A stretch of 55,493 bases of DNA, from positions 1 through 55,493 of IMG/VR virus record IMGVR_UViG_3300032266_000647, one strand, 5' to 3'. Under the pieces are notes generated by a model that ran no database searches, was not told the origin of the DNA, and saw only the letters and a program-made list of their open reading frames with translations. Within the stretch, counting starts at the first letter, position 1; each line of letters opens with the position of its first letter. Shown piece after piece: positions 35,545 to 53,700 of the stretch. The DNA is from a virus. Taxonomy: Duplodnaviria; Caudoviricetes. Position numbers and translations under genes: made by a program.

Positions 35545-36333
35545 ATGGGAAGCAAGGGAGGTTCCGCTCCGCCGCCGGATCCGCGCCTGGTCGAAGCGCA
35601 GATTCGCTCGATGGGCGTGCAGGACGACATGATCCGGCGCATCGTCGATAACAGTGAGTCGATGATGCCGCTCCAGCGCGAGCAGGCGCAGTTTGCGCTG
35701 GACACCGGCCGGCGCGCGGTGGCCGATGCCGCGGCTGACCGGGAGTGGATGCTGACGCGGCGGGGCATGTTGTCCGGCACCCAGGATCGGCTGGTCAATC
35801 AGGCCAACGAGTTTGATGCGCGCGTGCGCAATGACGAGCTGGCCAGCGAAGCCAACGCCGACGCTCAGACGGCGATTTCAAGCGCGCGGGCCTCGTCCGG
35901 CCGCGAGCTGGCGCGCCGCGGCGTGATGCCGTTTTCCGGTCGCATGGCGGGCACGGATGCCCGGATGGCGCTGGGTGGCGCGGCAATGCTGGCCGGCGCG
36001 CAGAACAACGCGCGGCGCGCGGCGCGTCAGGAAAACTACGCGCTGACCGACAGGGCAGCCAACGCGCTGGCCGGCTACCCGGCGATGTCTGCCGCCGCCT
36101 CGAATCAGGGCGCCGGCATCGCGGCCAACGGCGTCAACGTGGTCAACGCCGGCGCGGCTGGCATGAACGCGGGATTCGGCCAGGCTGCCGGGGTCGCCGG
36201 TCAGATGGGCAGCAACGCGACAAGCATGTGGGGCGCGCAAGCCAACTACAACGCGAATATGGCCGGCCAACAGGCGCAGGGCGCCGGCGCGCTGGTCGGT
36301 GGCCTAAGTACGCTGGGCGCGGCGTTCCTCTGA
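35545..36333 (+). CDS. Putative ejection (pilot) protein
   Basis: MGSKGGSAPPPDP start; Gly/Ala/Asn/Gln-rich; hydrophobic C-terminus. Confidence 0.65.
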   Translation: MGSKGGSAPPPDPRLVEAQIRSMGVQDDMIRRIVDNSESMMPLQREQAQFALDTGRRAVADAAADREWMLTRRGMLSGTQDRLVNQANEFDARVRNDELASEANADAQTAISSARASSGRELARRGVMPFSGRMAGTDARMALGGAAMLAGAQNNARRAARQENYALTDRAANALAGYPAMSAAASNQGAGIAANGVNVVNAGAAGMNAGFGQAAGVAGQMGSNATSMWGAQANYNANMAGQQAQGAGALVGGLSTLGAAFL

Positions 36334-37046
36334 TGGAGGCGCTGTTCGACCGCCACAAGAACGTGGCGCTGTCGTTCTCCGGCGGCAAGGATTCGCTCGC
36401 CCTGCTGCACCTGATGCGGCCTTGGTGGGATCGGTTGACCGTTTACTGGCTGAATCCGGGCAACCCGTTGCCCGAGACGGTCGAGCAGATGGCGCAGGTG
36501 CGCGAGCGGGTGCCGCACTTCAAGGAGGTCGCCGGACTCCAGCGCGAGATCATCGCGGCCGACGGCTGGCCCTCGGACGTGGTGCCGCACCGATACACCA
36601 GCGACAGCAATGCGATCTTCGGGCCGACGCCGTTCAAGGTGCAGGCGCGCCTGCAATGCTGCATCCGCTCGATGATGGTGCCGCTGTGGCGCGCGCTGCG
36701 CGCCGATGGCGTTACCTGCGTGCTGCGCGGCAAGCGGCGAACCGAGGCCGACCGCACCGGGATCGAGAGCGGCCACGTTGCCGAAGGCATCGAGGTCGTG
36801 TTCCCGCTGCTGGACTGGCGTGCCAGCGACGTGTTCCGGTTCCTGGAGGAGCGCGACGTGGATCTGCCGGCGACCTACCGGCACGCATCGCACTCGCTTG
36901 ACTGCATGGACTGTACGGCGTGGTGGGGCGAAGGACAGGGCGCCTACCTGAAAGCGGCGCACCCGGCGATGTTCCGGCAGTACGCGCGCCGGATCTGGCT
37001 TATCAAGCGGGCCGTGGCCGATCAACTGGACGAATGCGAGGTGTGA
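36333..37046 (+). CDS. PAPS/APS reductase-family (PP-loop) protein
   Basis: LSFSGGKDS, GKRRTE, PLLDW, QCC...SLDCMDC. Confidence 0.85.
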   Translation: MEALFDRHKNVALSFSGGKDSLALLHLMRPWWDRLTVYWLNPGNPLPETVEQMAQVRERVPHFKEVAGLQREIIAADGWPSDVVPHRYTSDSNAIFGPTPFKVQARLQCCIRSMMVPLWRALRADGVTCVLRGKRRTEADRTGIESGHVAEGIEVVFPLLDWRASDVFRFLEERDVDLPATYRHASHSLDCMDCTAWWGEGQGAYLKAAHPAMFRQYARRIWLIKRAVADQLDECEV

Positions 37047-37047
37047 C

Positions 37048-38655
37048 ATGGCAAGGGGTGGATTCGGTCAAGGGTTCCTGATGGGCGCGCAGGCCGCGAA
37101 GATGGGCCTCGACATCTACAACCAGGCCAAGACGCAGGGTGAGCTGGAAAAGATCGCGGACGCAAAGCCGGAAGCGACGACCGGCTACACGGCCGAACAG
37201 GGCACCGATCTGAGCGCGGCGGCGGCTTCGGGCCAGTACGACATCGGCGTCAAGACGCGGGACGACGGCACGTTCGACTCGTACACGGTGACGCCGAAGG
37301 CCGACCAGACGCAGACGGGCGTGATCGCTCAGCAAGACGTGACCGACTTCATGGGCAAGCGCACCGCCGGCACGATGACCGACGACCAGGTGGCGCGCGC
37401 CCGGACAATGGCGATGGCCGGCGTGGTGTCGAAGACGAACCCGATCGAGGGGCTGCGGATGCAGCAGGCAGTGACGGCCGGCGAGCGCGACGATCAGCGG
37501 TTCAAGTGGGAGACTGACCGCGCTGACCGCGACAAGCGCAAGGCCGACGACAAGGAGGCGTACACCGCCGCGCGGCAAGACGCCTACAAAAATTCGATTC
37601 ACGGCCGCAACATGACGCAGTACGTCCAGGCGTACAAGACGTGGGAGGAGGGCGGCAAGCAGGGCGAGGCGCCGGCCATGCCGACCTACTCGCTGGCGCA
37701 GTCGCTGGCCGACACTGGGGCGCTGCTGGCGGTTGACGCCGAGCGCGGCCGGGCCGACCCGAAGGCGTTGCAGCAATACGCGGCCACGATGAAGCAGGTG
37801 CGCGACGAGGGCTATGTGTCCGCGTTGCGGGTCGCCCAGTCGGGCGGATCTGCCGCGCAGATTGCCGAGGCGTTCAACAAGGCCGGCACGATGAAGGTCG
37901 AGCCGGGCGCCATTCAGGTTGGCAAGGGCAAAGGCCCGGATGGGATGCCGACGACCATGCTGACCCTCCGCGACGGACAGGGCAAGGTGCAAACCCTCAA
38001 CGTGGTGGCCGAGCTGGATGCGCTGGGCCAGGCCGACAAGTATTTCAACCGCTTCTACAAGGCCGAGGACAACAAGCGCGGCAACGCGCAGCTTGAGCTG
38101 GCGCGGAGCCGCGACGTGCGCGATGCGGCGTCGTCCGCGATCACGAACCGGCTGCACGGCGCTCAGGCCGACGAGGCGGAAGCAAGGGCGACGGCGCGCA
38201 AGGATCTGACCGCGGCGCAGACCGAGCTGAACGCGGCGATCGAGGCCGGCAACGCGCAGGCCGAGGCGGCGGCGCGCAAAAAATTGTCTACCTTCGCGCT
38301 GGGTGCCAAGGGCAGCCAGATGGATCCGCTGGAGCGCAAGGCGGCGCTGTACCTGGGCAGCGGGCGCGCGAAGACGATGGCCGAGGCGCTGGATCTGGCG
38401 CATCAGAAGGTGCAATCGTCGCCGCGCGACGATTACATGAAGTTGACGACCGGGCCGATGCCGAAGGGCGACAAGGAGCTGGACGCGCACATGCGCGTGC
38501 TGCACGGCGACACTTGGAAAGAGAAGGTCAACAGCGAGGGCGGCGGCGGCGGGCAGTCGATGGAAACCGATCCGCGCGCCAAGGCGATCCGCGACGATCC
38601 GAAGCTGACGCGCGAGCAGAAGCTCGCCAAGCTGCGCGAGCTGGGCTACAAGTAG
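37048..38655 (+). CDS. Putative ejection/internal virion protein
   Basis: MARGGFGQGFLMG start; helical; position. Confidence 0.6.
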   Translation: MARGGFGQGFLMGAQAAKMGLDIYNQAKTQGELEKIADAKPEATTGYTAEQGTDLSAAAASGQYDIGVKTRDDGTFDSYTVTPKADQTQTGVIAQQDVTDFMGKRTAGTMTDDQVARARTMAMAGVVSKTNPIEGLRMQQAVTAGERDDQRFKWETDRADRDKRKADDKEAYTAARQDAYKNSIHGRNMTQYVQAYKTWEEGGKQGEAPAMPTYSLAQSLADTGALLAVDAERGRADPKALQQYAATMKQVRDEGYVSALRVAQSGGSAAQIAEAFNKAGTMKVEPGAIQVGKGKGPDGMPTTMLTLRDGQGKVQTLNVVAELDALGQADKYFNRFYKAEDNKRGNAQLELARSRDVRDAASSAITNRLHGAQADEAEARATARKDLTAAQTELNAAIEAGNAQAEAAARKKLSTFALGAKGSQMDPLERKAALYLGSGRAKTMAEALDLAHQKVQSSPRDDYMKLTTGPMPKGDKELDAHMRVLHGDTWKEKVNSEGGGGGQSMETDPRAKAIRDDPKLTREQKLAKLRELGYK

Positions 38656-38683: not shown

Positions 38684-38712
38684 GACCGGCGTTTCGTTCG
38701 GTCAGGGTGGCC

Positions 38713-41700
38713 ATGAGCAAGCTCGAAGACTTCTTGGACGGCAAGCTGCCGTCTGCCGGCTCGTCGCAAATCGAAGACTTCCTGGCCGGTCGGCCGATCA
38801 AGCCGACAAAGCCGGCCGCGCCATCAAGCGGTGCGACGGCGGGCGACTGGCTGCACGCCGGATCGCAGGCGGTCGGCGAGGGCATTCTGGCCGCGCAGGG
38901 CGGCATCGGCACGTTCATCCAGGCGCCGGGCGCCTATCTGGAATCGGCGCTGCAAGGCGGCGCGGCCGCGCTTAATCGCGGCGTCTCCAAGCTGACCGGC
39001 GGCATCGTTCCGATCGACGAGGACGTGCAGAAGACCGCGCGGGACTTCTCGCGCATGGCGGCGGCAACGCGCAAGGAGAACGTCGCGGCCGAGGATGGCA
39101 CCTGGCTGAACCCGGCCACGACGGCGGCGCGCATGGGCCTCGGGCTGCAACTGGACGCGAATCAGCGCATTTCGCAGATCGAGGCAGAGAACCGCGAGCG
39201 CAACCCGGAGCTGGTGCGCCAGCAGCAAGCGATCTCGGACGCCGAGGGCTTCGTCGGGACGCTGAGCGCGCTGAAAGACAACCCGCTGGGGTTCGGCTAC
39301 ACGCTGGCGCGATCTGCGCCGGACATGATCGCCGGCCTGGGCATTGCGCGTGGCGCGGCATCGGCAACGATGCGCGAGGGCGCGGTGGCTGCGGAGAAGG
39401 CGGCGGCCAGCGTGGCGGCAGCGGGCGGCAGCGCCGCGGCACAGAAGGCCGCGGCCGACGCGGCGATGCAGCAGGCCCAGCGCAGCGCGGTCGGAAGCGC
39501 AAGCGTGGCTGGCACTGCGGCCGAGGGCGTCTCGTCGTCGTACAACGGCCGCGAGGGTGTCTACCGCGAGGTCATGAACCTGCCAGAGAAGACGCTGGAG
39601 ACGGCGCCGCGCTTCCGGGAAGTGCTGGCCGAGGCCGGCGGCGATCGTGCGCGGGCGCGCGAGATCCTGGCCAACGAGCTGGCCGATCAGGCGACGCTGC
39701 TGTCCGGTGCAAGCACGATGGCCGGTTCGATGCTGACGCGCCGGCTGTTCAAGGGCGACACGACGGCCGAGGCGGTGGCCGGCGTCAAGCCGCTGACGCT
39801 GCGGCAGGTGGGCCGCAACGTGCTGGAAGAAGGCTTCGAGGAGGGCGCGCAGGGGCTGGGCGAGGACGCGGCGCAGTTCGTTGCCGCTTCGCAGGCGGAT
39901 CCATCCAAGAAGTTCGACGTGGGCGGCACGCTGGCGCAGAACATCGCGGCCGGCGCCGTCATGGGCGCGGGCGGGACGGGCGGCAAGTATGCCTACGAGC
40001 GGGCGCGCGACCTGAGTCAACCGACGCCGCCGGGCGCTGCACCGACGCCGACCAGCGCGCCGGACATTTCGCCGACGGCGCCTGCCGCACCGCCGGCTGC
40101 TGCCGCACCGCCGGCCGCGCCGATGGCGACCGCCGGGGCCGACGACGAGGCCGCGCGCAAGCTGATGGCGCCGGTCAACATGACGGCGCTCGACCGCGTG
40201 CCGGAGATCGACACCGAGGCGGGGCAACTGACCGCGCGGCTGGCCGAGCTGAACGATCCGGCCGGCACCTATGGCCAGATGTTCGACCAAGAGCGCGCGG
40301 AGATTGCCAGCCGGCGCACTGCACTCCAGCAGGAGCGCGATGCGATCACGGCGGGCTGGCCGAAGGCGACGCCGGGGGCGCCGGCCTCGTTCTCGACGGA
40401 GACGGGCGCGCGCCTGGCGGGTCAGTACGCGCTGATGGACGCCGACGAGCTGACCACTTCCCATGACGTGAATTTGCGCGAGGATCCGCGCTACCCGAAG
40501 GATCTGCAACCGCGCGACCGCACGCGCGCCGCCTCGGAGATCCAGGTGTCGGGCATCGTCTCGAAGCTGGATCCTGCCCGGCTGGGCGTCTCCGCGGATT
40601 CGGCCAACGGCGCGCCGATCGTGGGCGCCGACGGCCTGGTGGAGTCGGGCAACGCGCGCACGATCGCCCTGAAACGGGTGTACCAGGCCAACGGCCAGAA
40701 GGCCGAGGACTACAAGGCGTTCCTGCGCGCCAATGCCAGCCAGTTCGGGCTGACGCCGGAGGCGGTGGACGGCATGGCCAAGCCGGTGCTGGTGCGCGTG
40801 CGCCAGACGCCGGTGAACCGCGCCGAGTTTGCGCGCCAGGCCAACGTGACGACGGTGCAGCGGATGTCGCCGTCCGAGCAGGCGCTGTCGGATGCGAAGC
40901 GGCTGACCACGCTGGAGGGGCTGAACCCGGACGACGAAGGCAACTTCACGTCGTCGAGCGACTTCATTCGGCAGTTCATGTCGATCCTGCCGGCGACCGA
41001 GCAGTCGGACATGCTGGAGGCCGACGGCAAGCTGTCTACGGCGGGCTACCGGCGGATCCAGAACGCGGTGCTGGCGAAAGCCTACGGCGACTCCCCGACG
41101 CTGCGGCGGATGACGGAGAGCCTGGACGACAACCTGCGCAACGTCTCGAAGGCGCTGGTGCGTGTGGCGCCGATGATCGCGGATGCACGCGAGCGCATGG
41201 GCGTGGGCACGCTGCACCAGGCTGACATCGCGCCCGATCTCGTTTCGGCGGTCGAGGGGCTGTCGGCATTGAAGGACAAGGGCTGGCGCGTGGCCGACGA
41301 GCTGGCGCAGGGCGACCTGACCGGGCCGAAGTATTCTGCCGAGGCAGGCGAGCTGCTGACGTTCCTGTCGGACAACATTCGTAGCCCGCGGCGCATGGCC
41401 GAGTTCGTCCAGCGGTACTACGAGGCGCTGGCGGCATCGGGCGACCCGAGCCAGGCGTCGATGTTCGGAGACGCGCCGGCGCCCAGCAGAATGAGCCTGA
41501 TTGAGCAGGCGCGAGGAGGCATCAATGCAGGACAAGCAGATCGAGGCGGTGCGCAAGCTGCTGCGCCAGGTGGACAGCAATCCGAAGGTGCGCAACGCGG
41601 TGGCGATGGCGCTCGCGGCGATGCCGGAGGCAGCACCGGAGACACCCGACTCAGCCGCGCCGCCAATCGCGGCGCCGAAGATGCCGACTGGGTAGCCTTC

Positions 41701-44700
41701 CCGGAGTCGTCCGGCACGCTGGGCATTCCGCGCGCGCAGATGCCCCAGGTAAAGGTGAGCGATCGGCTGGAGCTGCTGCGCTGGCTGGGCGAGCGAGGTA
41801 TTACGAACGAGCGCGCCGAGGTGGCGGCCGACACGTTGCGGCCGACGCAAGCGGAGTTCTCGCCGGCCAAGGTGGCGCGCTGGAACAACAGCGGGTCGGG
41901 CGATCGCTCCGTGCTGGTGTCGTCCGACGGTTACATCCTCGATGGGCACCACCAATGGCTTGCCGCGCGTGCCGCTGACGAGCCTGTGTCTGTCGTGCGG
42001 CTTGATGCGCCGATTCGCGGCCTGCTCGATGCCGTCAACAAGTTCCCGAAGACGCAGCGCTCGCCCGGCGCCAACGTGATCGACCTGGCGCAACTTCGCG
42101 CCGCCGCAGCGCAGGACTTCAACGACGCGCTGGCCGATCTGGCGGCGATCGCCTCCACGAACACGCGCGCGGCGCTGATGCCGGAGGACACGCCGAACCT
42201 GATGCCGACGCTGGTCAAGCTGTTCGGCGCGGCAATCCGCATGGTGGGCACGGACTTGAAGCGGGCAACCCGCTGGGTGAAGGATCAACTGAAGGCCGAC
42301 CCGCAGTTCAAGAAGGTCTGGAACCGGATCGCGGACGAGACGTATCGCAAGGCGGCGATGCAGGCGCTCGAAGGGATGGACGCGCCGGCCCAGGGCGGCC
42401 TGTTCGATTCGCCGGCCGTCGCGACTCAGGCTGTGCAGGGCGGGCTGTTCGACGCCGTGCCGGAGCAACCCGCGAAGGCGGCCGACGGCAAGCGGGCGAC
42501 GGTGGTTGCAAGGACGCTGGAAAAGGCGCCGGCTGTCGCCACGATCGTCATCGACGGTCAGACCCACGACCTGGACGCGCCTGACTTTGGCGCGGATCCC
42601 TGGCCGCGCACGCTGCCGGACGACTCGCCGCTGCTGCGCGAAACGAACAACCTGGCCGACGACTCGGATGTGACTTATGGCGGCGAAACGATGACCCGTG
42701 CTCAAATGCGCGCCCGCATCGTTGACGCACATTTCGAGGGGCTGCGGCCGGCGCCAGCGAGTCGCAAGCCGATCGTCTACATCATGGGGGGCGGTGGCGC
42801 GAGCGGCAAGGGCACGATCAAAAAGCGCCTGATTGCCGAGGGGCGCATGGACGCATCGGGCGCCGTGAACCTCGATCCCGACGAGATCAAGGTCGAGCAC
42901 ATTCCAGAGTACAAACAGATCGTTGCGGCGGGCGATTCGCGTGCCGCCGCGGTCGTGCATGAGGAAAGTTCCGGCATTGCCGCAACCGTGCGGTCGCGCG
43001 CGATCGTGGATCGCTTTGACCTGGTGCTGGACGTGACCCTGGGCGATCAGGGCAAGGGCGAAAAGCTGCTGCGCACCCTGAAGGATGCGGGCTACGAGGT
43101 TCGGCTGTACGGCGTGACGACGAACCCGCTGGTGTCGATTGTGCGGGCCATCAAGCGCGCCAAGGGTTCGGGCCGCTACGTGCCGATCAACCATCTGCTG
43201 CAAGCGCACAAGGGATTCAATGCCGCCTTTGAAAGCTACGCGGCCATTGCCGACGAGGCGCTGCTGTTTGAAAACAGCGGAGAATCCCCGCAGATGCTCG
43301 CCAGCGCAAGCGCAGGCGTTGCACTGAAAACCGAAAACGGATACAATATTGTTGCCGAAAGGAGCAAACTCAATGAACGTGCGAAAACTCTGCGCGATGT
43401 CAGCCGTGGAGAGGAACAAGGCGCTCGCCGCGATGAGTCTGGCCGAGGCAATGGAGTACCAGGCGGGGATCGAGGCGCTGGCCAACGAGCTGATGGACAA
43501 GGCCAAGAAGACCCCGGCCGAGCGGGAGATGCTGGACTTCTGCAACGAGGACGGCGCCTGGGAGGCGAACCGGACGGTGCGCGAGGCGCGGGCCAAGGAA
43601 CGCAAGGCAGCGAGCAAGGCGGCGTAAATGCAAACGCACAACCTGGTCAAAGCGGCAATCAAGGACAAGGCGCCGGCCCTGTATCGGCAACTCAGCGCAA
43701 GCGGCGAGCTGAATCAGTACGCAACGGATCTCGCGGACGAGATCAACGCGCAGGTGGTGACGCTGACGCAGGAACAGCGGACCAGGGAGGGCTGGGACAA
43801 GCTCGGCCCGATGGCGTGCGCGGCCAGAATGAAAACGGCAATGAGCCTGAACAACGAGCTGGTGCTGGCGCAGATGCTGGAGTTCCCGCAGGACGAGACA
43901 TCCCCGTCAAGTCCGGACGCAACTACCGATTCGGCCCCGATGACCTGACCTACGCGGGGACGTGGCTCCAGAAAGCCACGGCCAACGTCGAGGCCGTCGA
44001 GCTGCTCAAAGCGCTCGAAAAGGAAGGCCGCCAGGCCACGCGCGAGGAACAGCAAAAACTCGCGCAGTTCATCGGCTGGGGCGCATCCGAGATCGCCAAT
44101 TCGATCTTTGGCGACAAAATCAAGAAGAAAGAGGCGGCGGTGCGCGCATGGCAGCGCGTGCTGGCGGCGCGCGCCGAGGGCTTGACGCGCCTCGATCGCC
44201 GCGCAAACGACTACTGGACGATCGCTCAACCGCTGATCGAGGCCAAGTCGATGCGCTACGGCGACGATCTGTACCTGACCGACCTGACTGCCTCGAAGTT
44301 CAATGTGTCCGGCTCCGATGTGAAGTACCTGGAGCTGCGCGATCGGCTGGCGGGCGCGCTGACCAAGGAGGAGTTTGCCGAGGCGTCGCGCTCGACCCAG
44401 TACGCGCACTACACCAGCAGGGCGATCGTGCGCGCGATGTGGGCGGCGATGGAGCGCATGGGCTTCAAGGGCGGCACGGTGCTGGAGCCGGGCGCCGGCA
44501 TTGGCATCTTCCAGGGGTTGATGCCCGAGGCGATCGCGGCCAACAGCGCATACACCGGCATCGAGTTCGATTCGGTGACGGGCGGCATCCTGAAACAGTT
44601 GATGCCCGACGAGCGGATCCTGGTGGAGTCGTTCGTCGATTCGCGGCTGCCCAAGGGCTTCTACGACGTGGCCATCGGCAATCCGCCGTTCTCGGGCACG

Positions 44701-47700
44701 AAGATCCTCGGAGATCCGGAGTACGCGAAGCGGGCATTCAGCCTGCACGACTACTTCTTTGCCAAGTCGATCGACCGCGTGAAGCCGGGCGGCCTGGTGA
44801 TGTACGTGACCAGCCGCTACACGATGGACAAGCTGGACGACAAGGCGCGCGCTTACCTGAACGAGCGCGCCGACCTGGTGGGCGCGATCCGGCTGCCGCA
44901 AACGGCGTTCCAGGAAAACGCCGGCACCGAGGTCGTGACCGATGTCATCTTCCTGCGCAAGAAAGTCGCGGGCGAGACGTGGGACGGCGGCCAGGCATGG
45001 GCAAAATCGGTGCCGATGACGGTCGGCGGCGCCTCGTTCCCGATCAACGAGTATTTCCACGCGCACCCGGACATGGTGCTGGGGTCGCACTCCGACACCG
45101 GCAAGATGCACGCCACCGCGGAGCCGCAATACACGGTGATCCCGCGCAAGGGCGACATCGAGGCGCACTTTGCCGCCGCCGTGGCCACGCTGCCCGAGGG
45201 GATCTACAAGGCTGCGCGCGGATCGGCCGCCGAGGCCGCGAAGGTGCGCGAGATTGATTTCAACCCGAAGGCGAAGAAGGAGGGTAACTACTACGTCACG
45301 GACGCTGGCGTGCTGATGGTGCGCGAGGGCGGGGTGGGCCAGCGCGTCGAGTTGCGCAACCCGAAGGACGTGGAGCTGATTAAGGACTTCGTGCCGCTGC
45401 GCGATGCGTTGAAGCAGGCGCACTACGACCAGCTCAACAACCTGGACTGGCGCACCAGCCTGACGGCGCTGGGCACGGCCTATGAGAAGTTCGTCAAGAA
45501 GCATGGCCAGGTCAATCAGTTCACCTTGCGGGTCAAGAAGACGCAGGAGGTTGACCCGGACACCGGCGAGAAGTTCGTCGATGAGTCGATGGTGCGCAAC
45601 TTCACGCTGCTGTCCAAGCTGAAAGACGACCCGGACGTGACGCTGGTCGCCGCACTGGAGGAGATCAACGACGACACCGGCCAGATCAAGCCCAGCGCAT
45701 TCCTGAGCGAGCGCGTGCTGGGCAAGCCGGCCGATGCGCGCGTCAACAGCCCGATGGACGCGCTGCTGTCGTCGCTGAACGACATTGGTCATGTGGACAT
45801 CGACCTGATTGCGCAGCGCGTGGGCCTGGCGCCGGCCGAGACGATTGCCGAGCTGGGCACGGCGATCTATGACGACCCGGAGGCCGGCTGGGTGATGGCC
45901 GACGAGTACATGTCGGGCAACGTCAAGCGCAAGCTGAACCTGGCGCGCGAGTCCGCAAAGTCGGACAAGCGCTACGAGCGCAACGTGATCGCGCTGGAGG
46001 CGGTGCAGCCGGCGGCGCGGCAACCGTCGCAGATCAACATCGGCCTGGGCATGAACTGGATCCCCGGCGAGGTCTATGCCGACTTCGTGCGCGAGCTGGC
46101 TGGCGTGCGCGCGACGGTGGCGTGGAATCAGGCGACGAAGCAGTGGATCGTGACCGAACAGGCGGGCGGCAGCACGTTGCGGGCCACGGCTGACTGGGGC
46201 ACGAACCGGCGCAACATCACGGAGCTGCTGGAGCATGGTCTGACGGGCCGGCCGATCCAGATTACCGAGAAGACGAGCGACGGCAAGACGATCACGGCCA
46301 CGGCCGCGATCGAGGCGGCCAACCTGAAACTGGAAGCGATCAAAGAGCGGTTCAAGGCGTGGGTGTGGGAGAACCCCGAGCGCACCGACAAGCTGGTCAA
46401 GCTGTTCAACGATCAGTTCAACACCACGGTTCCGCGGTCGTTCGACGGTCGGCACCTGACGCTGCCCGGCACGTCCAAGACGTTTGACGTGTTCCCGCAC
46501 GTCAAGCGCGGCGCCTGGCGGATCATCCAGAAGGGCAACACCTACCTGGCGCACGCCGTCGGATCGGGCAAGACGTTCCAGATGGTCATCAGCGCGATGG
46601 AGCAGAAGCGGCTGGGCTTGATTAAGAAGCCGATGGTGGTCGTGCCGAACCACATGCTTCAGCAATTCGCGCATGAGTGGCAGATGCTTTACCCGGCCGC
46701 GCGCCTGATGGTGGCCGACGAAAACAACTTCCACACCGACAACCGCCGCCGCTTTGTCTCGCGCGTGGCGCTGTCCGACCTGGATGGCGTGGTCATCACG
46801 CACAGCGCGTTCAAGCTGCTCGACCTGGATCCGGCGTTCAAGCGCGGGGCGATCGAGCAACAACTGGAGGTGATGCGCGCCTCGCTGGAGCAGGCCGAGG
46901 AGGCGGACGGCAAGGGCGGTCGCAAGTCGCCGCGCATCAAGCAGATCGAGAAGCAGATCGAGAACATGGAGCAAAAGCTGGAGGAGGCCATGTCCTCGGA
47001 GGGCAAGGATCGCAACGTGCGATTCGACGAGCTGGGCGTCGATTTCCTGTACGTTGATGAGGCGCACGCTTACCGCAAGCTGGATTTCATCACCACGCGC
47101 CAGGTCAAGGGACTGTCGCCGGCCGGATCGGCGATGTCGTTCGATCTGTGGATGAAGGCGCGCTACCTGGACGAGAAGAAGCCGGGCCGATCGCTGGTGA
47201 TGGCCAGCGGCACGCCGGTCACGAACACGCTGGCCGAGCTGTATACGGTGCAGAAGTTCATGGCGCCGCAGACCCTCGAAGACCGGAACATCAGCGACTT
47301 TGACTCCTGGGCGGCGATGTTCGGCCGCGAGCGCACCGAGCTGGAGCCAAACGCCGCCGGCAAGTACGAGCCGGTGACGCGGTTCTCGAAGTTCGTCAAC
47401 GTGCCGGAGCTGATTCAGTCCTTCCGCGACTTTGCCGACGTGCTGACAGCCGACAACCTGGCCGCGCTGCTGGGCGACGCGCGGCCGAAGGTCGAGGGCG
47501 GCCAGCGCCAGATGATCGTGACGCCGAAGACCGATGAGTACAAGGTCTACCAGCGCGAGCTGGCCCAGCGCGTGAAGATCTCGAAGGCATGGAAGCCGAG
47601 CAAGGATCAGCCAAACAATCCCGACCCGATGATCCGCATCATTGGCGACGGCCGACTGGCCGCGATCGACATGCGGTTCGTGGATCCGAAGGCCGAACGC

Positions 47701-50700
47701 GACCCGGACTCGAAGCTGAACAAGATGATCGACGACGTGATCCGCGTCTTCAAAGAGACGGCGGACATGGAGTTCCGTGGGCCGGATAAGAAGGGGCCGG
47801 ACGGCAAGAAGATCAAGGGTTCTGGCGACATTGAGCCGAACAAAGGCGCGGCCATGATGGTCTTCTCCGACCTGGGGTTCGGTGCCGGTGTTACGGAAAG
47901 CCGGGGGTTCAACGCGCGCGCCTGGTTCACCAAGCGCCTGCGCGATGCGGGCGTGCCGGCCGATCAGGTGGCTTTCATGTCGGACTACAAGAAGTCGGCC
48001 GACAAGCTCAAGCTGTTCAAGGATGTCAACGCGGGCCGCGTGCGGATCCTGATTGGCAGCTCGAAGAACATGGGCACCGGCGTCAACGCGCAGCAACGCC
48101 TGAAAGCGCTGTTCCACCTGGATAGCCCCTGGTTCCCGGCGGATCTGGAGCAGCGCGAGGGCCGCATCGTGCGGCAGGGCAACAAGAACCTGCTGGTGCA
48201 GATCTTTGCCTACGCGACCAAGGGCACCTACGACGAAAACATGTGGAAGATGCTCGCCACGAAGCAGTATTTCATCGACCAGGCGATGAGTGGCGACGAC
48301 AACCTGCGCGAGATCGAGGATCTGGACAGTCAAAGCCAGTTCGACATCGCCGCCGGCCTGGTGGCCGAGGATCCGCGCATCTTGCAACTGGCGGGCGTGC
48401 GCGCCGAGATCGACAAGCTGAACCGGTTGTACCAGGCGCACGAAGATCAGCGCGCGCGCTTTCGCCAGCAGTATCAGATGGCGCAGATGGTGGTGGAGTC
48501 CACCGAGCGGCGACTGCCTGAGGCGGTGCAGGCGGCCGAGAAGGTGGTCGATCTGTCCGGAGACAAGTTCCGCGCGAAGGCGATGGGGCGGTCGTTCGAC
48601 GAGCGCGCGAAGTGGGGCGAGTCGTTGATCGCCGCGCTGAAAGACCTGACCGCGAAAGTCGAGACGAAGAAGACCAAGGTCGGAGAGATTTCGGGGTTCC
48701 CGGTCTACTTCATTGGTGAGAACGTGGCCGGCACGTACAGCGGGCGCATTGTGCTGGATGTGCCTAGCCCGGCAACGCTGGTGCTGTCCACCGAGACGGA
48801 TCTGTTCAGCGCGATGGGCCTGGCGATGCGTGCGCAAAATGCCGTGGCCGACGTGGGGCGCCAGCCGGCGCGGATGCGCGAGCGGATGGTCGAGTCACGC
48901 GCGCAGATGGATGCCGTGGCAACGCGCCTGGAGGCGGTATTCCCGATGGCGGGGATGCTGGCCGACAAGCGCAAGGAGGCGACCGAGCTGGAGGCGGCGA
49001 TCGAGGCCGACTCGAAGGAGCGCGACTTCTGGGTCGAGCGCAAGGACACTCGCACCGGCCATACGGTGAAGGCGACCAGCGCGGCCGATGCGATCGAGCG
49101 CGCGGTGAAGACCAACGGCGGAACGCCTGACGACTGGACGGCGATCGAGGGAGGCAAGCCGGAAATCCGGCTGTCGCGGCGCGGGATGGTGGCGGCCGAG
49201 CCGGGCGCCGCCTACAATGCGGGGTATGAAAACGACCTTTTCGGCAACCCGGTACAAGCCCCGCCCGTCGAGCTTGCACGCGCAAAGCGACCTGGTGCCG
49301 CCGGAAACCGGGACGTTCAGCCCGCGCCCGCCGTACTTGGCGATACGCAAGCCCCAGCCGGCGACTACTACGTCCGAACCGTCGTCGGAAAAGTCAGCGA
49401 CCGAAAACTCGGCGCCCCCCGGATCCTGAATGCCGAGGACGCGGCCCAGGCGACCGCGTACCTGTACAAGTCCGCGGTCGAGCGCTTCGACGCGATCGTC
49501 ACCGACAAAGACGGCAAGCCGCTGGCCGTCGTCGGCGGCTTCCGGGGCGCGCTGACGCAAACGTCCGTCTATCCGGCCACCGTGATGGGCGAGGCGATTC
49601 GTGTGCCGGGCGCCGCGAAGATCTGGTTCAGCCACAATCACCCGTCGGGCCTGGCCGTGTTGTCGCGTGCCGACGAGATGCTTTACCAGGCGATGGCCGA
49701 CGTGTTTAACGGCAGCGGCATCGAGCCGATGGGGATCCTGGTTGTTGCTGGACGTCGCTACGAGGCCGCCTTTTCAAATGGGGATCGGGTATCGGGGGGT
49801 GTGAAGGCGCCCGATGCCGCGGGCGCGACCGTGCCCGTCATCGAGCGCAACCTGGAAGACAACCGCGACGATGCCGCCCGGCTCGGCTCGCAGATCAGCA
49901 GCCCGCAGACCGCCAAGAAAACCGCCAAGACGATGTATGACGGCGCCAAAGCGCCGGGGCTGATGCTGCTGGACGCGCAAAATGTTCCGGCGGCGTGGGT
50001 GCCGTTGCCGACGAACACCCTGGGCCGGCTGCGCAACACCGGCGGCCTGGCCGCGCTGTATCGCGCGGTCAGTGAAAGCAACGCGGGGGCGGCGATCATC
50101 GTTCACGCCGGCGAGATGGATGCGCCCGTCGAGCAGAACATCGCAGCCGCGCTGAACAAGCTGGACGTGCGCACGCTGGACGCGATCAACGTCAAGACCG
50201 GCAAGTCGGCCGCCGAGAGCGGGCTGCACCTTGGTCAAGGCCCGGTGCTGTCGCGCGGCACCGCGCCGTCGGCCGGCGGCATGGACATCAAGGCGCTGCA
50301 AGCGGTGCGCGACCGGGTGGCGGCGAAGATGCCGAACATGCCGCGCGTGCATGTGCTGGCCGATCCCGGCAAGGCACCGAAGGCGCTGCGCGAATACATC
50401 ATCCGGCAAGACGCCTGGGGCGATGTCGAGGGCGCAATGCACAACGGCGAGCTGTACCTGTTCGCCTCTGGCCTGTCCGACGCGCTGCGCGCCGAGCATG
50501 TGCTGGCCGAGCATGAGGCCGCGCACGTCGGCCTGCGCGCGGTGCTGGGCGACAAGCTGGGCACCGCGATGAATTTGATCTACGCGCAGAACCCGAAGGT
50601 TCGCGCGGCGGTGTCCGACCTCCAGCGGCGCGGCAAGCTGTCGCGCGCCGAAGCGGTGGAGGAGGCGATCGTGGACATCCCAAGCGCCGAGCTTGCGAAG

Positions 50701-53700
50701 CTGGCAGGCTGGCGCCAGGTGGTCGTGATGGCGCGCGACTGGCTGGCCGACCACGGTTTCACGCGCATGGCGCAGAAGCTGACCGATTGGCTGGATGGCT
50801 CGCTGAGCGACATCGAGCGCGCGGATCTGTTCGTCGCGGAGCTGGTGCGCGCTGCGCGGGACTACGTGGCCGGTCAGCGCGCGGGCCGCCCGGCCAGCGT
50901 GCCGAGCGACATTCGACTGTCAACAACGCTGGCCGATGACATCGACAAGCAAGAGCGTTGGTTGCAGTCCGAGGCGCGCGCCCGCGGGTTCAAGGACATC
51001 GAGGATCTGCTGGCGAAGGACTACCCGCTGTTCGAGAAGCTGGCGGCGCTGTGGCGCAAGAAGAACCCGGCCGAGTCGCTGCTGTCGCGCAATTTCGGGC
51101 TGCCGCTGGTGTCGGCGCAGAGCGAGCTGGACGCGGCGATTGCGGAGGCTGGCGCACAGTTGCAGTCGGCTATGGATGCAAAGCGAGCGGGCCAGCGTGT
51201 CGTGCTTGGGCGGTCGCCTCATGTCCTGAGCATGGTGGCCAGCGCTTCGATGGGGAACCCGCGCCCAATGATGATCGAGCCGCAACTGTTGAACAAGATC
51301 GTTGCGCCACCAGGAACCCGCGTGTCAGAGGACGCGGGCAAGCACTACGGGGATTTGGCCGGCGTCTCTGGCGAGGAATTGGCGCGTGCCATGTATCGCC
51401 CGGCTGCGGTTATCGAAGATACGTCTCAGCAGGGCAACCTGATGATCGTCACCAACATCCTGACGCCCAGTGGGCCGATTGTTGTTTTCGTAGACGTGAA
51501 TGCTCGCGCGTTGGTCAACGGACTGGAAACGCCCGTCGTCATGGCAAAGTCGATCTATGCGCGCAGGGGCGCTCAAATCGCAGACTGGATCAACGGGAAA
51601 ACCCCGGATCGCGTGACGCACTACATCGACCAGGCGCAGATCGGTGAGTCAGTTACGGGACGACCAAACCCTGAAAACGCAAACCCCGCCTTTAAGGGGC
51701 GGGGTTCCGTGCCAGCCTTGGGGACTCTCAACGCCTCCCGGCTCAATGCCGTTTCAGCTACTTTCCCGATCTCCGACAACGCAAATGTACCCGGATTCGG
51801 ATCTGCTGTCAACAGCAACTATCGCGGACTGGCAACGATCGAAGCTGGATTGCAGAAGCTGTTGACTGGCCGCGGACTCAAGCCGGGACTGCGGCCCGCA
51901 AAGACGTATCAGCACCTTCTGGCCTGGATTGGCAAGCACTACAAGGGGGATGTTGCCGATCGGCCGATGTTCTCTCGCGCACCGGCCGTATCGTCCGAGG
52001 CGTTCCGCAAGTGGTTCGGTGACAGCAAGGTGGTCGATGCCGAGGGCAAGCCGCTGGTGGTCTATCACGGCACTGGTGCGACCTTCAACGCCTTCAGCCT
52101 TGACAAGGCCAAAGACGGTGCGCATTGGTTCACGCCGAACGAGCAGCACGCCGGCAGCTTCGGCGCCAACATCAAGACCGTCTATCTGAGGATCGAGAAC
52201 CCGCTGGAAATATCGCAGGACGATCTCGATGCGGAGTGGGACAAGGCGCACCCGGACGGCGAGCAGGATGACCGAAATCTGTTGCCGCGCGACTTTGTTG
52301 AAGTGTTTGTCAAGCGAGCGCGAGCGCAAGGCAAGGACGGCCTAATCATCCGGGACATGGGCGACCGCGATATTCAGTCCGATATGTACCTGCCGCTGCG
52401 CCCCGAGCAGATCAAGTCGGCCATCGGTAACGACGGCACGTTCGACCCGACGAACCCCGACATCCGCATGAGCCGGGCGCCGGCCGCACCGGCACGGAAG
52501 ACCGCGGCCGAGCGCGCCGACGAGATCATCAGCCGTCCGGCCGGCAGCCGGGCGCCGCTGGACGCGATGGCGCGCGGCCTGGCGCGCGTGACCGGAATCG
52601 ACCGCCTGACGGGCGCGATCTACCGGCGTGCGGGCTACCTGCTGGATCGGTACACGCCCGAGCAGGTGAAGGCCGGCGTGATCTCCGACTACGGCGTGCC
52701 CGAGGCGGTGATCGACCAGCGCGCGATGCTCCAGGGCCGTCAGCGCGTGCAGCTCCGGAAGGCCGGCCAGTTGGTCGAGAAGCTGTCCACCCTGACGCGC
52801 GCCGAAAGCCGCGTGGCCTACGAGTGGATGAACATGACCGGCGACGAGGATCCGAGCGCCTACGTGTCGATGATGCAGGGGCTTCCCGAGGAATCGGTGA
52901 AGGTGCTGCAAGACGTTCAGAAGATGATCGACCAGCTCTCGCAAGAAGCGGTGGCACTCGGCCAGCTCGACCCGGACACGTTCAAGCGCAACCGATTTGC
53001 CTACCTGCGTCGCAGCTACGCAAAGCATGTGCTGGAGCAGACGGCGGGCGAGAAGGCAAAGCGCCAGCGCGTGATCTCGATCCTGGGCGATCAGTACCGG
53101 GGCCGCGGCATCAGCGAGTCGGCAGCGATGAAGCAGATGCGCGCGATCGCGCCGGCGTGGTGGAACCGCAAGCTGGTCGCCGGCAAGGCCGACACCGCGC
53201 TGAAAGGCGAGAAGTTCGTGCGGTTGGAGCGGCGCGCCGCCACCGGCGCCGGTACGGCGCCCCTGCCTGGCGTGCAGTCGCAGCGCCCGCAGGGCAAGCT
53301 GCTGGAAGTGGCGTACTGGCCGGCGGCTGATGTTGCCAACATGCCCGCGAAGTATCGGACGGAGTGGGCGCAGGCCGGCACCTTCGAGGTGCGCGACGTG
53401 AAGGGTGAGAACGTCATCCTGTGGCGCGACTACACGAAGGACGAGCGCGAGTCGATGGGCGAGATCGACGAGGCGCGCTTTGCGATCGCCCGCACGCTGC
53501 ACGGCATGATTCACGATGTCGAAGTCGGCCGCTATCTGGACTGGCTGGCGCGCACGCAGGCGAAGCTGGAGGGCCAGTCGATCCCCGGCACCGTGGTCGA
53601 GGCGTCCGAGCGTTACCGCGACACGTTCAAGCCCGACGAGTGGGTCAAGGTGCCCGACACCAAGATCCCCGGTACGTCGGTGCCCAAGTACGGCAAGCTG

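Follow-up and report, generated by a model that had tools for sequence, protein, structure and literature searches.

Introduction

Genes embedded in other genes are known from phages: lambda Rz1 lies inside Rz in the +1 frame, and in phiX174 gene B lies inside A and gene E inside D. Zeta toxins, for their part, are normally paired with a small helical antitoxin, whose gene precedes the toxin gene in the Epsilon-Zeta system. Polyvalent proteins have been described by Iyer et al. (2017, PMC5512222), in the accessible part of which TnpV, overlapping genes, frameshift and linker are not mentioned. An embedded Rz1 has been described in related Lessieviruses (PMC9144972); in the accessible part of that paper, the word "embedded" refers to Rz1 only and TnpV is not mentioned. 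For TnpV itself a role is only postulated, namely in excision by likeness to lambda Xis, according to the available part of PMC3158075. The mostly open-access main texts that we searched hold no description of genes such as those reported here inside a giant phage gene.

Layout of the locus

We analysed a stretch of 55,493 nucleotides of phage DNA, hereafter called the window. Its giant gene is the final gene of a + strand virion block (head/tail), and the genes lying 5' of it encode terminase, portal, head, internal virion and tail fibre proteins. By searching Pfam, we found ddrB-ParB, Zeta_toxin, Eco57I-type methylase, SNF2/helicase, RadC, MuF_C and ART-PolyVal domains in the giant ORF; as in polyvalent proteins, many unrelated conflict-type domains, MuF_C included, are gathered within one ORF of 5,515 codons. 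The phage head protein is 48–49% identical to its counterparts in DC1, Bcep22 and JC1. The genome also carries an integrase, a repressor-like gene and RecET, and judged from these genes the phage looks temperate; the ORFs that we scanned include one recombinase only, an integrase-family protein (71-1132). The features that matter here are the following.

38707..55254, + strand: giant polyvalent (DarB-like) gene, 5,515 codons (ORF listing, translation, Pfam domains)
41525..41695, + strand: second embedded gene, 56 aa, +1 frame, just before the ParB-like module (ORF; homologs)
42745..43407, + strand: Zeta-toxin-like kinase module in the giant frame (Pfam PF06414, E 2.4e-35, giant residues 1347-1512)
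43319..43347, + strand: promoter-like site, TTGCAC at 43319-43324, a 17-nt spacer and TACAAT at 43342-43347 (sequence)
43338..43357, no strand: imperfect 20-nt palindrome over the -10-like box, the claimed "operator" (82% complementary 11-nt arms)
43358..43364, + strand: Shine-Dalgarno-like AAAGGAG, 8 nt 5' of the ATG at 43373 (sequence)
43373..43627, + strand: nested ORF 1, 84 aa, +1 frame, all-helical orphan (translation; codon-position G+C)
43408..43880, + strand: giant-frame spacer, G/R/Q/A/D-rich (translation; composition; identity between relatives)
43628..43948, + strand: nested ORF 2, 106 aa, +1 frame, TnpV-like (translation; TnpV match)
43890..44100, + strand: start of the methylase-helicase (DarB-like) module in the giant frame (conserved segment)

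Both nested ORFs are thus on the same strand as the giant gene, in its +1 frame and wholly inside it. The TAA of nested ORF 1 abuts the ATG of nested ORF 2, so that stop and start are coupled, and the tail of nested ORF 2 overlaps the true start of the methylase-helicase module. On the 5' side, the C-terminal tail of the Zeta module is conserved to ~43407 (48% identity over 67 aa with the Zeta-bearing relative L023) and shares its DNA with the first ~11 codons of the 84-aa ORF. On the 3' side, the conserved methylase-helicase segment, which opens with GVPAGR in 16 of the 17 loci compared and with AIPAGR in L027, aligns with stand-alone plasmid methylase-helicase genes at their N-terminal region. 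The layout given in the original prediction (TTGCAC-17-TACAAT, AAAGGAG, 84-aa ORF, TAA-ATG, 106-aa ORF) is exact in the sequence, and the giant frame is linker-like as claimed, a G/R/Q/A/D-rich stretch serving as spacer only.

A further embedded gene of 56 aa was found upstream, with GAGGAGG 7 nt 5' of its ATG. Its homologs are likewise in the +1 frame and precede the same ParB-like module in five relatives (L002, L003, L005, L012 and L015).

Codon signal and the open giant frame

By measuring G+C at codon positions 1/2/3, we found values of 0.85/0.61/0.45 for the giant frame over 43373-43948; the giant ORF as a whole gives 0.67/0.47/0.85. In the nested frame, the values are 0.62/0.45/0.91 for ORF 1 and 0.60/0.45/0.81 for ORF 2. 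The codon-bias switch that had been claimed is therefore real: between the Zeta and methylase-helicase modules, over 43373-43948, the codon signal moves to the +1 frame. A third stretch of shifted G+C, at 49207-49416, has no protein-like +1 ORF.

We also shuffled the codons of the nested ORFs, and the giant frame stayed open in 3–66% of trials per ORF. Chance alone kept it open over the 84-aa ORF in 66% of shuffles; over the TnpV-like ORF, for which seven loci were shuffled, it was open in 8–37% of trials per locus. These values agree with the earlier proposal that the nested frame keeps stops out of the host frame, since G/C-rich third positions in the nested frame make the giant frame easy to hold open.

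Conservation and selection across relatives

The comparison set consisted of 17 distinct metagenomic loci, the window included. Conservation of the +1 frame across homologs had been proposed as a check, and the frame is kept throughout: in 17/17 loci the giant gene contains the TnpV-like ORF at +1, and no stop codon interrupts the giant frame across it in any of them. Compared with the 8–37% open in shuffles, the latter count points to selection. Among nine loci, dN/dS, which is only a rough measure in overlapping frames and here covers the TnpV-like ORF and not the 84-aa ORF, ranged from 0.23 to 0.82 in the nested frame and from 1.04 to 2.45 in the giant frame, with the nested value lower in 36/36 pairs. 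Amino acid identity was also lower in the giant frame than in the nested frame in 13 of 15 pairs. For the window and L002, identities were 0.49 and 0.75, respectively, and changes at nested codon positions 1/2/3 amounted to 0.17/0.17/0.41. Together, these comparisons indicate that the TnpV-like frame is under purifying selection.

The original prediction had tied the nested ORFs to the two flanking modules. For the TnpV-like ORF, the tie to Zeta did not survive the comparison: the module 5' of the gene is not Zeta in 13/17 loci, and the gene is also embedded in the cultured phages JC1, Bcep22 and Gerry. On this comparison, the TnpV-like protein is not Zeta-specific. A fixed pairing with the methylase-helicase was not upheld either, since the module 3' of the gene is a methylase-helicase in 15/17 loci but ParB-like in the other two (L016 and L017). 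Around three stand-alone plasmid methylase-helicase genes, a search of all frames out to 3.5 kb found no TnpV-like gene.

It took the JC1 copy as query to bring up homologs in cultured phages. JC1 gp69 carries a 112-aa +1 ORF (JC1 record 49303-49641) that is not annotated, preceded by TACAAT at -31 and by GAAGGAG, and located directly 5' of the methylase-helicase module; in a single-sequence search it matches the TnpV-like profile at E 7.8e-14. Using this copy in tblastn, we obtained 23 phage records, from Burkholderia and Ralstonia phages, in all of which the match falls within the annotated giant gene and has no gene annotation of its own. In JC1, Bcep22 and Gerry, we confirmed that the homolog is in the +1 frame. 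Since the homolog is unannotated in all 23 records, a conserved protein family seems to have been overlooked; gene callers never report these ORFs. The arrangement is also apparently old: wherever we looked among the relatives, cultured Lessievirus-type phages among them, the TnpV-like gene occupies this kind of junction.

Family and fold of the TnpV-like protein

The claimed likeness to TnpV holds for the family more clearly than for the window protein. Fourteen of 19 aligned family members match PF14198 at E <= 0.01 (best E 3.7e-8), but the window protein itself scores 22.6 bits (E 1e-4), under the Pfam cut-off of 27, and its match covers profile positions 32-110 only. For the JC1 homolog, there was no Pfam hit. 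A profile search of the family returned 278 proteins at E <= 0.001; among the 150 matches listed, 138 are of at most 150 aa, which indicates a small stand-alone protein rather than a usual domain of giant proteins. Several searches yielded nothing: tblastn of the window protein against plasmids and phages gave no match, the same protein as single query against genome contigs found none, and the distant homologs P0140 and P0109 had no loci among viral contigs, nor P0140 any in plasmids.

The structure model of the TnpV-like protein has four helices and a disordered tail (pLDDT 82.7), the folded part corresponding to residues 1-83 (43628-43876). With this model, Foldseek against the PDB gave no match at E <= 0.001, and a wide VIA fold search gave a best Z of 6.0, to generic helical chains. 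Sequence searches of the nested proteins against solved structures gave nothing below E 0.4.

The 84-aa ORF and the Zeta module

A word search for the 84-aa ORF returned one homolog only, which is near-identical. In PHROGs nothing was found below E 0.08, and the protein atlas gave no usable hit. The lone viral "hit", in L009, was rejected as an in-frame stretch of a large unrelated protein. Solved antitoxins of the Epsilon/PezA type are three-helix bundles. The single-sequence model of the 84-aa ORF has five helices (pLDDT 76); Foldseek of this model against the PDB found no match at E <= 0.001, and phmmer against the PDB nothing below E 1.

We then considered whether this ORF co-occurs with the Zeta domain, as a built-in antitoxin should. 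A separate +1 ORF of 73–84 aa directly before the TnpV-like start is present in 3/4 Zeta-bearing loci (the window, L023 and L027), each time with its own Shine-Dalgarno site, and in 0/13 of the others. In the fourth, L028, Zeta is present with an ORF of only 19 codons at this position. The three ORFs, however, are mutually dissimilar: BLASTP found nothing between them, and 207, 495 and 18 of 500 shuffles reached the observed scores. In two low-G+C phages with a related Zeta domain (L020 and L021), no nested ORF was seen. Nor does the ORF lie upstream of Zeta as a small gene of the Epsilon/PezA type does; it starts at the end of the Zeta module, within the same giant gene.

Start signals

The nested ATG is present in 17/17 loci, and GGAG or GAGG precedes the first nested ATG in 15/17. 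A -10-like hexamer is found 25–37 nt 5' of the first nested ATG in 15/17 loci, as well as in JC1, the exceptions being L027 and L028. Such hexamers are rare: the + strand of the 55.5-kb genome has only 7 TAnAnT hexamers, the window's -10-like box included, and there are just 1–3 -10-like hexamers per 5–16 kb of giant ORF. The second codon of the box is always a rare T-ending synonym, with a usage of 0.05–0.18 (0.45 in one short contig). The -10-like hexamer is conserved well beyond chance. The -35 part of the claimed promoter fared less well, since its hexamer matches the consensus at 3/6 positions (8/12 in total) and a consensus promoter scan does not call the 43319-43347 site. The repressor control that had been claimed was not borne out: it rests on a palindrome seen in this window only, and an alignment of upstream regions from 10 relatives does not show the 43338-43357 sequence. 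As to the early expression that had been proposed, the nested genes lie where the + strand head/tail block ends.

Explanation and alternatives

We consider it quite probable that two small genes in this region are genuine and that both are embedded, on the same strand and in the +1 frame, in an inter-module spacer of a giant virion gene. Ribosomes coming from the giant gene's own start would read through in frame 0 and produce a low-complexity spacer, whose sole constraint would be to contain no stop codon. Other ribosomes would start at the internal Shine-Dalgarno site and ATG at 43373 to yield the 84-aa protein, then initiate again at the abutting ATG (43628) to yield the TnpV-like four-helix protein. 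The conserved -10-like box would probably also give the nested genes their own transcript. As to origin, neighbouring virion genes were most likely fused across small intervening genes, whose -1 reading would be nearly stop-free in G+C-rich genomes.

Two readings would deny that these are separate working genes. The +1 ORFs could be dead remnants of genes trapped by fusion, or else the giant ORF could be an artefact and the true genes separate, as long spurious ORFs are common at 66% G+C and ORF 1 is an orphan. Yet the nested frame shows the signs of purifying selection in 36/36 pairs, its start signals are conserved, independent assemblies and finished cultured-phage genomes show the same arrangement, the giant frame has no stop in 17/17 loci, and, according to the accessible part of PMC9144972, the JC1 giant protein was detected in virions by mass spectrometry; we regard this reading as the least credible of all. 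Barely more credible is a ribosome shift to +1 that would join the TnpV-like segment to the giant protein or give a truncated product with this segment as its C-terminus. The +1 ORFs are on the same strand and the giant frame is non-coding-like there by composition, but the window and several relatives have a +1-frame stop shortly 5' of where the nested ORF starts, another stop separates the two nested ORFs, and the ATG with its Shine-Dalgarno-like site is conserved. In addition, the homologs are mostly free small proteins, two opposite shifts would be required, and Rfam over 41000-44500 found no element.

If the embedded genes are genuine, what they do is a separate matter. That they encode small helpers made alongside the giant protein, binding or holding one of its modules, is our tentative proposal, which we hold as possible but short of probable. 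A more specific version, built-in immunity, appears unlikely: the 84-aa protein would be an Epsilon-like inhibitor of the Zeta kinase, and the TnpV-like protein would neutralise the methylase-helicase until the giant protein is packaged. Such a role would fit two small proteins that are both predicted to be helical, the habitual company of Zeta toxins, the extra ORF ending at the TnpV-like ATG in 3/4 Zeta loci and 0/13 others, and a TnpV-like gene directly 5' of the methylase-helicase in 15/17 loci and JC1. It fits poorly with the dissimilarity of the three Zeta-adjacent ORFs, the 19-codon ORF of L028, the low-G+C phages whose related Zeta domain has no such ORF, a gene order opposite to that of Epsilon-Zeta, the ParB-like module that follows the TnpV-like gene in L016 and L017, and the stand-alone plasmid methylase-helicase genes with no TnpV-like gene nearby. 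Somewhat less likely still, the nested genes could be a "moron" that the prophage expresses from the -10-like box without need of the late operon; one use might be to weaken the giant protein that a superinfecting relative injects. The phage looks temperate, and the box is kept, through rare codons, inside a late gene; against this, the -35 is poor and L027 and L028 have no -10-like box. A weak hint came from three RNA libraries (X15-X17) with contigs of a 95–97% relative, in which the deepest contig over the 5-kb stretch begins at 43628, 43628 and 43684, that is at or near the TnpV-like ATG. However, sequencing-adapter letters adjoin this start in two of the three, a DNA contig is also broken close to this point, the RNA libraries may contain DNA, and assembled contigs cannot show starts, strand or level, so that we counted them as no evidence.

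Beyond the two genuine small genes favoured here, a broader and speculative picture, which we think improbable, is that Bcep22-like and related phages eject giant proteins whose genes amount to "operons inside one reading frame". Each enzymatic module would have a conserved small gene overprinted on the spacer before it, equipped with a separate ribosome site and often a separate promoter, and the products would be module-specific keepers (inhibitors or packaging chaperones, possibly prophage-made immunity against incoming relatives). If true, a toxin-immunity or cargo-chaperone system would here have its partner gene physically enclosed by the gene that it serves, and the partner would accompany its module in swaps.

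These genes matter for several reasons. The overlooked family sits in phages explored for Burkholderia phage therapy. The locus also suggests a simple route to giant multi-module proteins in G+C-rich genomes, by read-through of small genes in a nearly stop-free frame with the genes kept. Finally, JC1 and Bcep22 offer a testable system for out-of-frame initiation inside a heavily translated gene, and allow asking whether injected "weapon" proteins carry their own keepers.

Comparison with known systems

The giant gene itself has close counterparts. With polyvalent proteins it shares MuF_C, ART-PolyVal, Zeta, ParB, methylase-helicase and RadC domains (Iyer et al. 2017, PMC5512222, as far as the accessible part goes), and with the DarB-like giants JC1 gp69 and Bcep22 gp75 the same place of the gene in the genome (accessible part of PMC9144972). 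Nested ORF 2 has in common with TnpV of Tn4451-type transposons (PF14198) its sequence family (14/19 matching) and its small size. Unlike in Tn4451-type elements, there is no adjoining large serine recombinase in the window, and the setting is a phage virion gene.

As in Epsilon-Zeta and PezA-PezT, a Zeta-type kinase stands beside a small helical ORF. Unlike in those systems, the ORF of the window comes after the toxin and not before it, is embedded in the toxin's own gene, and showed, in the phmmer and Foldseek searches above, neither sequence nor fold likeness to solved antitoxins.

The nearest parallels are lambda Rz1/Rz and phiX174 B/A and E/D, where, as here, one gene encloses a whole second one that has its own start and reads in another frame of the same strand; in our case both products are presumed to be made. 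In contrast to these cases, the host here is a multi-module virion gene of 4,000–5,500 codons, and the embedded genes are found only in inter-module spacers, at two or more sites per gene. The host frame would be constrained only to stay open, and one of the embedded genes belongs to a family known from transposons.

Nested ORFs in the giant gene

The window is a complete virus record (55,493 bp) with terminal repeats. Its minus strand encodes a repressor-like protein, an integrase-family protein and RecE/RecT-like proteins; on its plus strand, the genes for terminase, portal, major head protein, internal virion proteins and tail fibre form a block. The last member of this block is a giant ORF in which Pfam identified ddrB-ParB, Zeta_toxin (residues 1347-1512), Eco57I-type methylase, SNF2/helicase, RadC, MuF_C and ART-PolyVal domains. 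With this domain set, its product qualifies as a polyvalent protein as described by Iyer et al. 2017 (PMC5512222). The giant ORF contains two embedded ORFs, or three if the one starting at 41525 is counted:

38707-55254 (+), giant ORF, 5,515 codons
41525-41695 (+), +1 frame, 56-aa ORF, GAGGAGG 7 nt upstream, directly before the ParB-like module
43319-43347 (+), promoter-like TTGCAC-17-TACAAT
43373-43627 (+), +1 frame, first ORF, 84 aa
43628-43948 (+), +1 frame, TnpV-like ORF, 106 aa

The promoter-like hexamers, the Shine-Dalgarno (SD) site, both ORFs of the pair and their TAA-ATG coupling were found where the original prediction had placed them, and the codon bias indeed switches to the +1 frame. 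Between 43373 and 43948, the G+C peak shifts from position 3 to position 1 of the giant codons (0.85/0.61/0.45 at positions 1/2/3, vs 0.67/0.47/0.85 for the whole gene), while the +1 frame displays a normal gene signature (0.62/0.45/0.91 in the first ORF and 0.60/0.45/0.81 in the second). Scanning the whole giant ORF revealed only three stretches with such a shifted peak. Both ORFs are probably translated separately from the giant frame, and the arrangement may have arisen by fusion across small genes.

For the 56-aa ORF, homologs were found at the same junction and in the +1 frame in L002, L003, L005, L012 and L015 (relative loci). This ORF, whose GAGGAGG site is strong, gave only weak HEAT-repeat-like Pfam matches under the cut-off.

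Selection acts on the nested frame

Searching viral and metagenome contigs with the TnpV-like protein yielded 7, 10 and 11 loci. Once same-contig re-fetches and loci duplicating a nested protein were dropped (L007, L010, L011, L013, L014, L018, L019, L024 and L029-L032), 17 distinct loci were compared, window included; as these are related, counts are not independent events. The +1 placement is conserved, the homolog lying in the +1 frame of a spanning long open frame in 17/17 loci. Among the 16 relative loci, this open frame starts within the locus in L008 and L027 and exceeds the fetched DNA at both ends in the other 14. Shuffling the nested codons in seven loci preserved an open giant frame in 8-37% of the trials for each locus, whereas it is open in all loci, which indicates that it is genuinely read through. 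In all 36 pairs from nine loci, dN/dS (approximate for overlapping frames) was 0.23-0.82 for the nested frame and apparently 1.04-2.45 for the giant frame. Likewise, amino-acid identity between the window and L002 is 0.75 in the nested frame and 0.49 in the giant frame, with changes concentrated at the third codon position of the nested frame. Selection acts on the nested frame of the TnpV-like gene, and the giant frame is a read-through spacer kept open. The nested ATG is present in 17/17 loci, and the first nested ATG is preceded by GGAG or GAGG in 15 of them and by GGGGAA in the remaining two. Hence, conservation, selection and start signals are all demonstrated for the TnpV-like ORF.

A conserved -10-like hexamer precedes the nested genes

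The predicted promoter stood in part: the site as a whole scored under the promoter-scan threshold and its -35 is unconvincing, but the -10-like hexamer is conserved. The supposed operator overlapping it is a single imperfect palindrome. A TAnAnT hexamer (AATACT in one locus) lies 25-37 nt 5' of the first nested ATG in 15/17 loci, L027 and L028 being the two without it. Hexamers of this type are rare, with only 1-3 instances per 5-16 kb of giant ORF and only 7 on the plus strand of the whole window. In the giant frame, the hexamer comprises two codons, the first for Tyr (or Asn) and the second for Thr, Ser or Asn; this second codon is the rare T-ending synonym in 15/15 cases (usage 0.05-0.18; 0.45 in one short contig). 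The conservation of a rare hexamer with a rare codon points to a constraint on the nucleotide sequence itself, the simplest reading being a putative -10 element, and an internal promoter may serve the nested genes.

One of the seven hexamers, TACAAT at 49213, falls within a third shifted-G+C spacer (49207-49416), in a G-Y-x-x-D-L-F-G type peptide resembling what precedes the nested gene in relatives. Since the +1 frame of this spacer is not protein-like, the box may serve something other than a nested gene.

The TnpV-like gene occupies a junction between variable modules

Four loci have Zeta as the module 5' of the TnpV-like gene: the window, L027 and L028 by Pfam match, and L023 by 48% identity to the tail of the window's Zeta. 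This module is RadC in L008 and gave a weak RelA/SpoT-like match in L002, whereas the other ten loci had none in Pfam (nine scanned; L003, L025 and L026 left out). On the 3' side, L016 and L017 have a ParB-like module, and the other 15 of the 17 loci the methylase-helicase N-terminus. Such variable neighbours make the TnpV-like gene a junction gene, and not a Zeta partner. No TnpV-like sequence was detected in any frame within 3.5 kb of three stand-alone plasmid methylase-helicase genes. Comparing L002-L028 with window positions 42600-44100, we see the same junction gene between differing module pairs (5': Zeta, RadC, unnamed; 3': methylase-helicase, ParB-like). Module exchange seems to have taken place around this constant junction, which might be a recombination point. 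The DNA and RNA contigs of a close relative part from the window at 42485 and continue into a stretch with a strong ribosome site and an ATG, which suggests another small gene or a different module there.

The expected co-occurrence with Zeta, absent for the TnpV-like gene, was found for the first ORF. A separate +1 ORF with its own SD site, ending at the TnpV-like ATG, exists only in Zeta-bearing loci (84 aa in the window, 73 aa in L023, 77 aa in L027, just 19 codons in L028) and at 0/13 loci without Zeta. The 84-aa ORF has only one homolog, near-identical.

Any function of the nested genes is something we infer, and our tentative best guess is a helper role, with binding to one of the giant protein's modules. 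The original prediction was more specific, with nested products made early as immunity against the Zeta and methylase-helicase modules. The co-occurrence of the first ORF with Zeta speaks for it, and hints weakly that this ORF may encode a Zeta inhibitor. However, the first ORFs of the window, L023 and L027 share no detectable similarity, L028 bears Zeta yet only its 19-codon ORF, and the TnpV-like gene is not tied to Zeta. We therefore consider this immunity model unlikely, and less so a helper of the giant protein.

The TnpV-like protein belongs to a family of small proteins

The TnpV likeness is more evident across the family, where 14/19 aligned relatives match Pfam TnpV (best E 3.7e-8), than in the window protein alone, which matches weakly (22.6 bits vs a cut-off of 27). 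A profile search of 1.84 billion representatives gave 278 relatives at E <= 0.001; 138 of the 150 listed are <=150 aa long, indicating that members of this family are usually small, free-standing proteins. In a few database proteins (P0109, P0134 and P0067), the TnpV-like segment is in frame with other sequence, followed in one by a P-loop NTPase-like stretch, so that the family may at times form a segment of larger proteins, or these gene calls may have run on. Four helices are confidently predicted (residues 2-83, pLDDT 82.7), followed by a predicted disordered tail (residues 84-106), and it is this tail that overlaps the start of the methylase-helicase module, where the giant frame genuinely codes. 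At 43880-43910 of the window and in all loci, the nested C-terminal L-E-F-P-Q-D-E and the giant-frame G-V-P-A-G-R share the same nearly invariant bases, whichever module comes next; distant free-standing homologs retain an L/T-E-F motif. No solved structure resembling the TnpV-like or the 84-aa protein was found, and the account in PMC3158075 treats the role of TnpV in Tn4451 as postulated.

Cultured phages carry the same nested gene

The window's major head protein shares 48-49% identity with its counterparts in Burkholderia phages DC1, Bcep22, CSP3 and JC1. According to the text of PMC9144972, these phages encode a "DarB-like" giant protein at the same genome position, which was detected by mass spectrometry in JC1 virions. 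A PAPS-reductase-like gene (36228-37046) lies shortly 5' of the giant gene, with a 535-aa ORF (37048-38655) between the two. JC1 likewise encodes a PAPS reductase a few genes 5' of its giant gene, and this synteny supports kinship with that phage group. The frame switch recurs in JC1 gp69 (4,515 aa), directly 5' of its methylase-helicase module:

49303-49641 of the JC1 record, +1 frame, 112-aa nested ORF, TACAAT at -31, GAAGGAG

This ORF has G+C of 0.59/0.43/0.88 at its codon positions and matches the TnpV-like family profile with E 7.8e-14 (one-sequence search), while the record annotates only the giant CDS over it. A further shifted-G+C spacer of gp69 (record 47583-47822; 2584-2823 of L036, the JC1 locus) contains no convincing +1 ORF. 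By tblastn, the JC1 nested ORF matched 23 records, from Burkholderia phages JC1, DC1, CSP3, Bcep22, BcepIL02 and BcepMigl, and Ralstonia phages Gerry, GP4, Claudette, Alix, Darius, Gervaise, YL1, QkW1 and UAM5. At the matched position, 13 records name the annotated feature DarB-like, 8 call it a hypothetical protein and 2 a multidomain transglycosylase/helicase/methylase. In Bcep22 and Gerry, the two records examined for frame besides JC1, the homolog lies, as in the window, in the +1 frame.
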